This document shows, one piece after another, positions 2,278 through 8,103 of a stretch of 55,984 nucleotides of DNA. The DNA comes from Harriotta raleighana (Eukaryota): contig JBNZDD010013635.1 of assembly GCA_050575255.1 (NCBI GenBank), positions 2,767,670 through 2,823,653 of the forward strand, written 5' to 3'. The notes under the pieces were generated by a model. The model saw only the letters and a list, made by a program, of their open reading frames with translations. It was not told the origin of the DNA and did no database searches. The first letter of the stretch is position 1. Each line of letters starts with the position of its first letter. The position numbers and the translations under genes are program-made.

Positions 2278-2298
2278 CTGATTGTGCTGGAGCCCCCG
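2278..2298 (+). CDS. FARP2: Candidate FARP2 21-nt microexon (LIVLEPP), phase 0-0
   Basis: Long T/C tract, TTGCCAG acceptor, ctgattgtgctggagcccccg, GTGAGT donor. Frame-preserving in a phase-0 intron with no stop. Confidence 0.72.
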
Positions 2299-3473: not shown

Positions 3474-3592
3474 CTCCAAAGTAGAAATGGGAAAGTGGAT
3501 AGAAGACCTGAATATGGCCATTGATTTGGTGAAGAAGTCGAACGAGAAGGGAGATATGTTCCTGGAGACTAACATCTTCGATCGATCAAACA
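3474..3592 (+). CDS. FARP2: FARP2 exon (SKVEMGKWIEDLNMAIDLVKKSNEKGDMFLETNIFDRSN), PH1 C-terminal helix
   Basis: ttttgaag acceptor (phase 2), gtaagt donor (phase 1). Contains the PH helix tryptophan motif KWIEDL. Confidence 0.93.
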
Positions 3593-4070
3593 GTAAGTTA
3601 CTTAAAGGACATGATAGCAGCTCCTCCACAGGAATGGACCAACTCTTCAGTGGGGTGAAAGGCAGAAGGCTAAGGAACATATTTTGCTTTAGATTGCATG
3701 GAAATCTCCAAAACTCTTCAAAATGGCTTTGCTTTCAACTTTAGAAGAAGGTTTTGAAGTTCAATCTATTTAGTTTAGTTGCAAATTGGGAAAGGTTTTG
3801 AATCATCTGTCCCAAGGGCATCATTTGTGACATCCAACGCATTAGTTAATAAGTTTCTCCAAATGATCCACCTTCATTTTAGGACCAATTAATGGCTCAA
3901 ACCCTTGAATTAATTATTATAATCCATAATAATAATAACAGGAGTGGACACCTCAAGGACATTGTCCAAGAAAAACATTGCCTTCAAGTTGAAGATTTTG
4001 TGGAATTTGAAAAAATTCTAAACCTGAATCCTAATTTGGATCCCTTTCAGATTGAATTTAAGAATTTTTC

Positions 4071-4399
4071 TAATAATATAATAATAATCCTTGCATTTGA
4101 TGTAGCGCTTTCTACATCTTATCGATGTCTCAAAGCTCATTACAGAATATACTGTAAAATGAATTGACTGTATATTTGTGGGTGAAACGAGGCAGACAAT
4201 TGCGCATAGCAGTGTCCCACAAACAGTTGTGGATTGAAATAAACAATTTTTTTTATTATTGTGGTTTTTTTGGACGGATTATTGTTAGGCATGTGGTCTA
4301 AGGAAACTTGCCCAAGGTTTCAGCCTGATCTGCCTGGATTCGAACACAGGTCTCATGCTTGTAAGGCGAGTGCTCTTACCACTGAGCTACAGGAGCTCC
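4071..4399 (-). mobile_element. Full-length tRNA-derived SINE (Deu-like core, L2-type tail; SINE2-1_CM-like)
   Basis: Reverse complement has ggagctcctgtagctcagtgg A box, gttcgaatcc B box, gtgggacactgct core and (tta)n tail. Confidence 0.9.
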
Positions 4400-4735: not shown

Positions 4736-4899
4736 GGTCTTCAGATGAGGTGTCAGTGGAGCAGGAATCCGAAGACGACACTCACTCTTCCCGCAGCTCG
4801 TTGGACAAACAGACCCATCACCGTGCCAACACCACAATGCACGTGTGCTGGCATCGCAACACTAGTGTCTCCATGATGGACCACAGTGTTGCAGTGGAG
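4736..4899 (+). CDS. FARP2: FARP2 linker exon A (SSDEVSVEQESEDDTHSSRSSLDKQTHHRANTTMHVCWHRNTSVSMMDHSVAVE)
   Basis: cctcag acceptor, gtaccc donor, phase 1-0, 164 nt. HRANTTMHVCW is the FARP2-type motif. Confidence 0.95.
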
Positions 4900-5998
4900 G
4901 TACCCAGAGGGCACTCTCACCAGCTCCTGCACTCCATTTACCCAACGATAACCCAGGGCAAGGCACTAATACACAGAGCCTACCTGCCAAAGCTGTTTAA
5001 TATTGATTTCCAATTAGTTTGGCCAGCTATGGCATTGGTTTTCCAAACTTAAATGACAGGAGTTTTCCAAGATATCTTGCTCCTTGTACAGGCTTGATTT
5101 ATTATGTCTAAGTGGGGAGGAGAAAATTAATCTAGACTGTGATTTTTCCTGGTGCAGTCAATCGTCACCCCAGCCATTCCCTGGTTCAGTGTAGACCATT
5201 TCAACCATTTCCCAGACTTGTATACTTATGATCAATTGCATTTACAAGTGGATGGTTTGATGTCCTGGGTTATCTGGTGGAGTCAAAACACTTTTGTCTC
5301 TCCCATCACTCATTTTCCATTCTTCTTCCTTTCAAACAGGCTTCTGAAACATGTGGGATTCTCTGTGTGACACTCTCTCTTTCAGCTCACTCATCCTCTA
5401 TGTTTCCTTCCATTAATGAAAATCGCTTCTCTCCTGTATTTTTGCTTTCTTGTGCAGCCATTTTGCATCGCATTGTGACTTGGTGAACCTGGTGATCTTC
5501 CTTTTCACTGTAAAGATCTGTTGAGTGTTCGCTTCTAACTTGCTGGTGACATTGGTTGACTGCCAAAACACTTAACTGAGTACCTGATATCTTTGCGAAA
5601 GATGACATCAAACCCTGTGGTGTCTGGATACAAAGATTTTGCTGTGGTTTTGGTATCTTGGTCATTGTACATTGGTCATTTTATTGGACCTGTTGTGAAC
5701 ACAGACTTTCTCACAGAGTTCAGGGTGGTCATTCACTTGTGGAATAGATTGTGGTAATACGATTACATTGATCTCATGCCACTCATATTTGGGAGGCAGT
5801 GCTGTAGTTCAGTGAGGCATTGTCTGTGTGAATGGCCATCTTGTGACATCCCACCCTGTAACTGACTAACTGAAGAATAACGCAAATTTCAGCTACTGAC
5901 CTGTGATCCCGGTAGTTTATTCATCGCTGTCCTGTTTCTGTCTTTCTTTTTCTCTCTCTCCCCTATCTCCGTACCTGCTTACACACGGATGTGCTCAG

Positions 5999-6138
5999 TT
6001 TTCTATTCTCCTGCCACTTCCCCGGAGCTTCCTCCGCGCTACCTTCTAGGCCAGAGTCAGCGGCCTAACACCATCACCCACGTGTGCTGGTACCGCAGCC
6101 AAAATCTGTCGCTGGCTGATTACCTACGAATGATGGAG
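5999..6138 (+). CDS. FARP2: Candidate FARP2 alternative linker exon B (FYSPATSPELPPRYLLGQSQRPNTITHVCWYRSQNLSLADYLRMME), homologous to exon A
   Basis: Pyrimidine tract ~5925-5970, gctcag acceptor (second in-frame acceptor at 6049), gtaaac donor. Phase 1-0, 140 nt. RPNTITHVCWYR aligns with RANTTMHVCWHR. Confidence 0.82.
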
Positions 6139-7370: not shown

Positions 7371-7478
7371 AACCAGCTGTCTGGGTACCTGCTGAGGAAG
7401 TTCAAGAACAGCAATGGCTGGCAGAAACTCTGGGTTGTCTTCACCAACTTCTGCCTCTTCTTCTACAAGACCCACCAG
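7371..7478 (+). CDS. FARP2: FARP2 exon, PH2 start (NQLSGYLLRKFKNSNGWQKLWVVFTNFCLFFYKTHQ)
   Basis: aattag acceptor, gtacaa donor, 108 nt, phase 0-0. SGYLL and YKTHQ are FARP2-type residues. Confidence 0.96.
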
Positions 7479-7951: not shown

Positions 7952-8103
7952 GATGACTATCCCTTAGCTAGTCTCCCACTGTTAGGCTACATGGCCAGTA
8001 TGCCCTCTGTGAGCGACAGCATCCACAAAGATTATGTCTTCAAGCTCCAGTTCAAATCTCACGTCTACTTCTTCAGAGCTGAGAGTGAATATACATTCGA
8101 AAG
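7952..8103 (+). CDS. FARP2: FARP2 exon, PH2 (DDYPLASLPLLGY...HKDYVFKLQFKSHVYFFRAESEYTFE[R])
   Basis: ttgcag acceptor, gtaaga donor. Lies within ORF 7913..8107. Confidence 0.96.

Follow-up and report, generated by a model that had tools for sequence, protein, structure and literature searches.

The FARP2 Locus

The window, that is, the whole 55,984-nt stretch of Harriotta raleighana DNA analyzed here, contains exons of a gene that, judged from its sequence, is a FARP2 orthologue, with a FERM-DH-PH-PH layout and a closer relationship to FARP2 than to FARP1. Over 238 DH-PH columns, the gene displays 82-88% identity to non-frog vertebrate FARP2, versus only 68.5% to the FARP1 of its own genome. 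The exons from FERM to PH2 were placed by tblastn with shark and zebrafish FARP2 across loci L013, L012, and L011 and the window, the shark protein giving the better match for the N-terminal exons. The features around the linker between PH1 and PH2 are compiled in Table 1; among the shared exons, D1 is identical at 36 of 36 residues across six relatives. A motif scan of the window for an adjoining kinase gene returned nothing convincing.

Table 1. Exons and sequence elements of the FARP2 linker region, in window positions (nt)
Feature	Position	Strand	Evidence
Upstream shared exon U, end of PH1, phase-1 donor GTAAGT	3474..3592	+	Frame analysis; tblastn with shark and zebrafish FARP2
Exon A, canonical PH1-PH2 linker exon, 164 nt, phase 1-0; 5′ half acidic and serine-rich, HVCW core conserved	4736..4899	+	4H6Y and 4GZU matches
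Putative distant branch point TACTGAC, extended pyrimidine tract, and 81 nt free of AG, 5′ of exon B	5894..5998	+	Consensus match only
Exon B, duplicated linker exon, 140 nt, phase 1-0	5999..6138	+	Conserved in at least 154 proteins; weak 4GZU match
PELPPRY of exon B, PxxPxR (SH3-ligand-like) overlapping PPxY (WW-ligand-like), as motifs only	6022..6042	+	Motif inspection
TAG met on splicing of A to B through the acceptor at 5999	6047..6049	+	Frame analysis
Downstream shared exon D1, start of PH2	7371..7478	+	Frame analysis; tblastn with FARP2
Exon D2, PH2; TGA at 7954-7956 met when A and B are both skipped	7952..8103	+	Frame analysis; tblastn with FARP2
Final FARP2 coding exon, up to the stop codon	9065..9146	+	tblastn with FARP2; isoform comparison

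Three further elements of the gene deserve mention. A 21-nt microexon of phase 0-0 in PH1 (2278-2298, forward strand; LIVLEPP), with TGC immediately 5′ of its acceptor, ranked first among 15 AG-21-GT candidates, and its seven-residue cassette is variable among fish and frog isoforms and present in a bird model. The accessible part of the ASCOT study (PMC6952364) describes a mouse Farp2 rod-photoreceptor exon of 21 nt with 99% inclusion in rods; the equal length, together with the primers given there for the mouse exon, which flank the junction of the window microexon, makes it likely that the two are the same exon. The rod exon resembles the linker pair in that it, too, is a conserved alternative exon of the PH part of this gene, but it is a seven-residue PH1 cassette, distinct from that pair. 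In the intron 5′ of exon A, a tRNA-like element on the reverse strand (4330-4392; Rfam RF00005, 32.2 bits) is likely a tRNA-derived SINE. Finally, teleost isoforms (P0254/P0256, P0244/P0249, and P0040/P0038) display another alternative acidic segment, of 15-16 residues, located just N-terminal to the DH domain.

A Tandem Pair of Linker Exons

The preliminary description of this DNA had proposed that exons A and B are tandem duplicates, used in a mutually exclusive manner to encode the segment leading into PH2, and its account of exon structure is confirmed. The two exons have the lengths and phases given there, with the boundaries CAG/GG...GAG/GTACCC for A and CAG/TT...GAG/GTAAAC for B, both lengths being 2 mod 3 and both exons following the phase-1 exon U. 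Either exon preserves the frame, with U-A-D and U-B-D both open, while U-A-B-D runs into the TAG and U-D into the TGA of Table 1. The peptides reported for the ends of the two exons are correct and their homology is confirmed, with a local score of 67 that none of 20,000 shuffles equaled (shuffle mean 18, maximum 47), a common core of ~21 residues, and a repeat at the DNA level of 41 nt at 76% identity. The duplication is thus borne out by a peptide likeness beyond chance and by the DNA repeat; the likeness is found only in the 3′ halves, the 5′ halves displaying none.

The structural data available concern the A form. In the autoinhibited DH-PH-PH structures of FARP1 and FARP2 (4H6Y and 4GZU; He et al. 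2013, by way of PMC6041286), exon A is part of the solved chain that leads into PH2, corresponding to chain residues 348-399 of 4GZU. Exon A matches 4H6Y (E 3e-17) and 4GZU (E 3e-15), whereas exon B matches 4GZU weakly (E 0.0023); a search for a B-type chain among 177,635 PDB sequences found none, both solved chains being A-type.

The TAG at 6047 depends on the acceptor at 5999. Position 6050, an alternative start for B, was ruled out as the main one since the residues upstream of it are conserved and the models of relatives start at the equivalent of 5999. The AGs of the window that would give starts at 6028, 6055, or 6061 are weak candidates in frame after A, so that an in-frame leak is possible on paper. 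Bird and lizard models (P0139-P0145, P0148, P0151, and P0152) make use of a second acceptor within B that removes nine residues and starts the exon at LPPRY; the window carries GG at that dinucleotide (6024-6025), and this short form of B is therefore unavailable in it.

Exon B in Relatives

Two protein searches, of which the best 120 of 159 and the best 120 of 165 matches were considered, gave 154 different proteins, all carrying B. The named sources comprise sharks, bichir, sturgeon, paddlefish, many teleosts, a turtle, lizards, a snake, and birds. Among these listed matches, (i) 105 of the 154 join U, B, and D without A, (ii) 21 hold both exons, and (iii) 28 are read-through or partial forms. 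Most of this evidence consists of automated RefSeq 'isoform X' gene models, and RefSeq isoform models normally rest on RNA-seq introns. Two unnamed proteins are independent of gene prediction: P0113, a full-length 1055-aa open reading frame on an assembled contig of 4,013 nt without introns, and P0035, 272 aa on an assembled contig of 2,769 nt, both with U-B-D spliced. We infer that these contigs are transcripts. In addition, same-species isoform pairs exist that differ in this exon alone, as in a cuckoo (P0165/P0124). Use of each exon alone is documented in models and assembled contigs of relatives only, namely the U-B-D proteins, the same-species pairs, and P0113.

Comparison of the window with shark, teleost, and bird gives 36-39 of 46 identical residues in B, clearly more than the 24-30 of 39 in the adjacent exon U, and 46-49 of 54 in exon A. 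Across the 154 listed proteins, 16 of the 46 columns of B are invariant; the conservation figures for B lean high because the matches were selected by likeness to B. A skeptical reading would hold that the copy of B in this species no longer serves any function, or that it is used from an internal promoter only. Splicing of B is indeed known from models of relatives, and a more diverged marsupial copy, described below, has a model without the upstream junction. Against this, the frame of B is open, its splice sites are canonical, and its identity to shark, teleost, and bird copies is that given above. In relatives, B is spliced in full-length FARP2 models, at odds with a dead duplicate, and the 105 listed U-B-D proteins are at odds with exclusive use of an internal promoter; the skeptical reading is hardly credible.

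Exons A and B of FARP2 form a genuine tandem duplication, ancient and of a familiar type. The isoform with B is already present in automated RefSeq annotation, and the pair is apparently undescribed, no paper found in the open-access literature mentioning it. The king cobra protein P0137, labelled FARP1 at source, carries FARP2-type exons A and B, and its label is likely a naming error.

Distribution among Vertebrates

When 1.84 billion representatives were searched without an index, 18 matches were obtained, comprising 14 further fish- or amniote-type B copies, two new ones, and two repetitive proteins without the HVCW core (P0169 and P0172), which were dropped as chance matches. The marsupial Gracilinanus agilis (P0170, XP_044539982.1) carries an intact B, identical at 29 of 46 residues, with PPRY kept and spliced to the PH2 exon, in a partial model on a 2-kb contig. 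This copy reads ANT in place of PNT, as exon A does. The loss of B from mammals, which the preliminary description had raised, does not hold for the class as a whole, as the marsupial keeps the exon, but it agrees with the placentals, none of which is found among the B matches listed. A loss in placentals is likely, with the reservation that, after clustering at 90%, an A representative can conceal members of the B form. Cyclostomes, invertebrates, coelacanth, lungfish, salamanders, and crocodilians do not occur among the named B matches listed either.

Three published resources were consulted for FARP2. The gene is absent from ten supplementary files of PMC5740500, a catalogue of human mutually exclusive exons (MXEs) whose accessible files leave out unvalidated candidates, and from the table of PMC8373072, in which control genes were found. 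The accessible supplement of PMC9741552 does not contain FARP2, but it also lacks the control gene FGFR2 and is thus uninformative. Humans likely keep only A.

Frogs display a different picture. A B-like exon was found in Xenopus, and the follow-up yielded 17 frog FARP2 proteins. Together with seven frog clusters, these amount to 53 entries, of which 45 contain the segment, all B-like, eight lack it, and none is A-type; in three fish and lizard clusters, on the contrary, the A type prevails, with 28 of the 33 members listed. The frog linker exon is short and lacks PELPPRY, and the frog models show no other linker exon. Its core is identical to the closest B copies at 17-19 of 28 residues and to A at 15-17, and it is mixed in character, with PNT, NQS, and MME of the B type and VS and DH of the A type, a composition that supports a B-like assignment with moderate confidence. 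The frog FARP2 proteins (P0191-P0243) are fast-evolving, with 57-58% identity to the window over DH-PH versus 82-88% for other vertebrates. Their gene lies on a long branch of a tree that, having one outgroup and low support, does not date the duplication and is still compatible with the frog gene being a separate paralogue. Queries of the H. raleighana genome using either the frog protein or exon D1 gave FARP2 and FARP1 loci only, and no third FARP paralogue. Frogs have likely fixed a B-derived exon.

The FARP1 gene of the same genome (G000:C13720:9093458-9098804, reverse strand; loci L008-L010) contains a single A-type linker exon, and B is absent from either of the introns flanking it (best score 31, versus 251 for the control). 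The duplication likely arose in FARP2 before the split between sharks and bony fish.

Splicing of the A/B Pair

Mutual exclusivity, as originally proposed, is upheld in part. B replaces A in the 105 listed proteins and the frames of the two exons clash, an incompatibility that is also present in teleosts and a lizard; nevertheless, the exclusion is leaky, since some teleost models hold both exons in frame. The in-frame combination accounts for the 21 listed proteins mentioned above, of which seven are named RefSeq-type teleost isoforms; three additional models, found among cluster members, bring the named ones to ten. The teleost models of this kind use an upstream acceptor that adds ~10-12 unconserved residues; in the window, the open stretch upstream of B contains no in-frame AG comparable to it.

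Several mechanisms that could enforce exclusion were considered. No U12-type sites occur around A and B, where the donors are GTAAGT, GTACCC, and GTAAAC and the acceptors are CAG or TAG. None of these donors fits the U12 donor consensus, and all splice sites of the region look U2-type from their sequences. A check for docker-selector pairing, based on the introns of one species, returned short imperfect inverted repeats only. The window introns around the two exons contain one TGCATG and four ACTAAY motifs (positions 3695, 4644, 4965, 5865, and 6465), which we take to be RBFOX-type and QKI-type, respectively. The intron between A and B measures 1,099 nt, and the putative branch-point A at 5899 lies 100 nt 5′ of B and ~1,000 nt from the A donor. 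For MXEs governed by steric interference, the accessible part of PMC5740500 places the donor and the branch point within about 50 nt of each other; given the length of the intron and the distance of the predicted branch point, steric blocking is inapplicable here.

Frame-based exclusion is the commonest class of human MXEs, accounting for 377 of 629 clusters (accessible part of PMC5740500). Among 276 proteins collected, five, which come from three teleosts and a lizard, have A followed by B in a shifted frame that ends at a stop within B, as frame-based exclusion predicts. In the window, the TAG precedes the B-D1 junction by 89 nt and is followed by two further junctions, and decay of such a transcript is therefore expected. 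Without a steric block, transcripts containing both A and B would quite probably be made and then degraded, and the removal of wrong combinations by nonsense-mediated decay appears likely.

The same shifted-frame models invite a different interpretation, in which B doubles as a regulated poison or truncating exon, the joining of A to B stopping translation before PH2 and leading to less FARP2 or to a protein without the inhibitory PH2. All five models end at the same position in B, icefish and bichir models (P0039 and P0108) continue from B into intron sequence and terminate without reaching PH2, and a steric block is absent, as this interpretation would have it. However, the common end is explained by a conserved ATG and the base next to it in the protein frame of B, and the window stops earlier, at 6047. 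Moreover, conservation of B follows its protein frame, the 105 models have it in place of A, and its stop precedes two further junctions, where decay is expected. A poison function of B is very unlikely.

Proposed Effect of the Exchange on the Protein

He et al. reportedly proposed in 2013 that the inter-domain linkers stabilize the autoinhibited state of FARP proteins. Exchange of A for B alters one of these segments in an uneven manner, as both exons keep the xNTxxHVCWxR core and differ in their 5′ halves. The 5′ half of A is acidic, with a net charge of -6 and three S/TxxD/E sites, whereas that of B is neutral and comprises two SP sites and PELPPRY within an SPxxSPELPPRY stretch. PELPPRY fits both the PPxY class of WW ligands and the PxxPxR class II of SH3 ligands. 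Of the 154 B proteins listed, 150 have PPRY and 130 have PELPPR; three sharks and a turtle carry a disrupted PPRY and frogs lack it, so that the motif is, on sequence grounds, not essential to B.

AlphaFold models of a full-length shark B isoform (mean pLDDT 41.5) and of a PH1-B-PH2 fragment (pLDDT 55.5, with residues 95-146 below 50) are uninformative on the fold of B. Only the last B residues are comparable, and these superpose on those of A (model residue 145 to 922 of 4H6Y and model residue 150 to 925 of 4GZU).

PMC6041286 attributes the autoinhibition of the FARP1 and FARP2 DH-PH-PH region to PH2 together with further elements and raises the possibility that both proteins are pseudo-GEFs. 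Against this background, the reading that we favor on balance is that A and B are copies of a linker exon used mostly one at a time, that wrong combinations are likely lost to decay, and that B likely changes the docking of regulators on the autoinhibited DH-PH-PH region. As to how this might operate, the common core would likely anchor the linker, and the 5′ half, being free, would change from an acidic serine-rich stretch to the proline-rich SPxxSPELPPRY, recruiting WW- or SH3-domain proteins and proline-directed kinases. This more specific proposal, a constant core with exchanged regulatory docking sites, comes close to an even chance but falls somewhat short of it.

Alternatively, the exons may be exclusive while the structured 3′ core is what matters, with the last 14 residues packing differently on the PH domains, the strength of autoinhibition differing as a result, and the proline stretch being incidental. 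The 3′ core of B is its most invariant part and is consistently unlike that of A, a difference that favors an intrinsic structural effect, and the core stays where PPRY is lost in the sharks, turtle, and frogs mentioned above. On the other hand, the proline-rich 5′ stretch is kept in 150 of the 154 listed proteins, from teleosts to birds, and in the marsupial, unlike the neighboring end of exon U, which is variable. An effect of the core with an incidental proline stretch is rather doubtful, and the exchange of docking sites is retained as the working proposal. At a more speculative level, B might be an ancient activation switch, by which FARP2 could be opened by WW- or SH3-domain partners through PELPPRY or would be intrinsically less inhibited, and which was kept from sharks to a marsupial, fixed in frogs, and is missing from human catalogues; this extension is unlikely.

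Comparison with Known Systems

The pair resembles tandem duplicated exon substitutions and homologous MXEs such as those of FGFR2 and TPM1 (accessible parts of PMC8373072 and PMC5740500) in comprising adjacent homologous exons that have the same phases, are open with common flanks, are ancient, and are frame-incompatible when joined. It departs from them in that FARP2 appears in neither of the human lists searched and the pair seems to be kept outside humans, and in that homology is limited to the 3′ halves, the 5′ halves carrying unrelated motif sets. A second parallel is the differential retention of homologous exons in CALU, MARVELD3, and CACNA1 (accessible part of PMC4494069), where different copies of one ancestral pair are kept by different lineages. 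The sorting in FARP2 follows this pattern, with both exons in sharks, fish, reptiles, and birds, B-like exons only in frog models, and A only in FARP1. Unlike those cases, the sorting seems to have taken place inside a single gene, lineage by lineage, and no pair of paralogues having divided A and B between its members was found.

Meaning of the Finding

In the accessible part of a 2018 account (PMC6041286), the release of FARP1 and FARP2 autoinhibition, or their status as pseudo-GEFs, is described as open. The B isoform, conserved from sharks to birds, exchanges the linker that adjoins the inhibitory PH2 and thereby offers a ready-made natural comparison. In addition, studies of FARP2 in zebrafish, chicken, and frog may concern a protein form that is not listed for humans. 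The surprise is limited, as events of this type are familiar and automated annotation already includes the isoform; what is added is the uneven retention of the pair across lineages and the exchange of motifs beside the inhibitory PH2.
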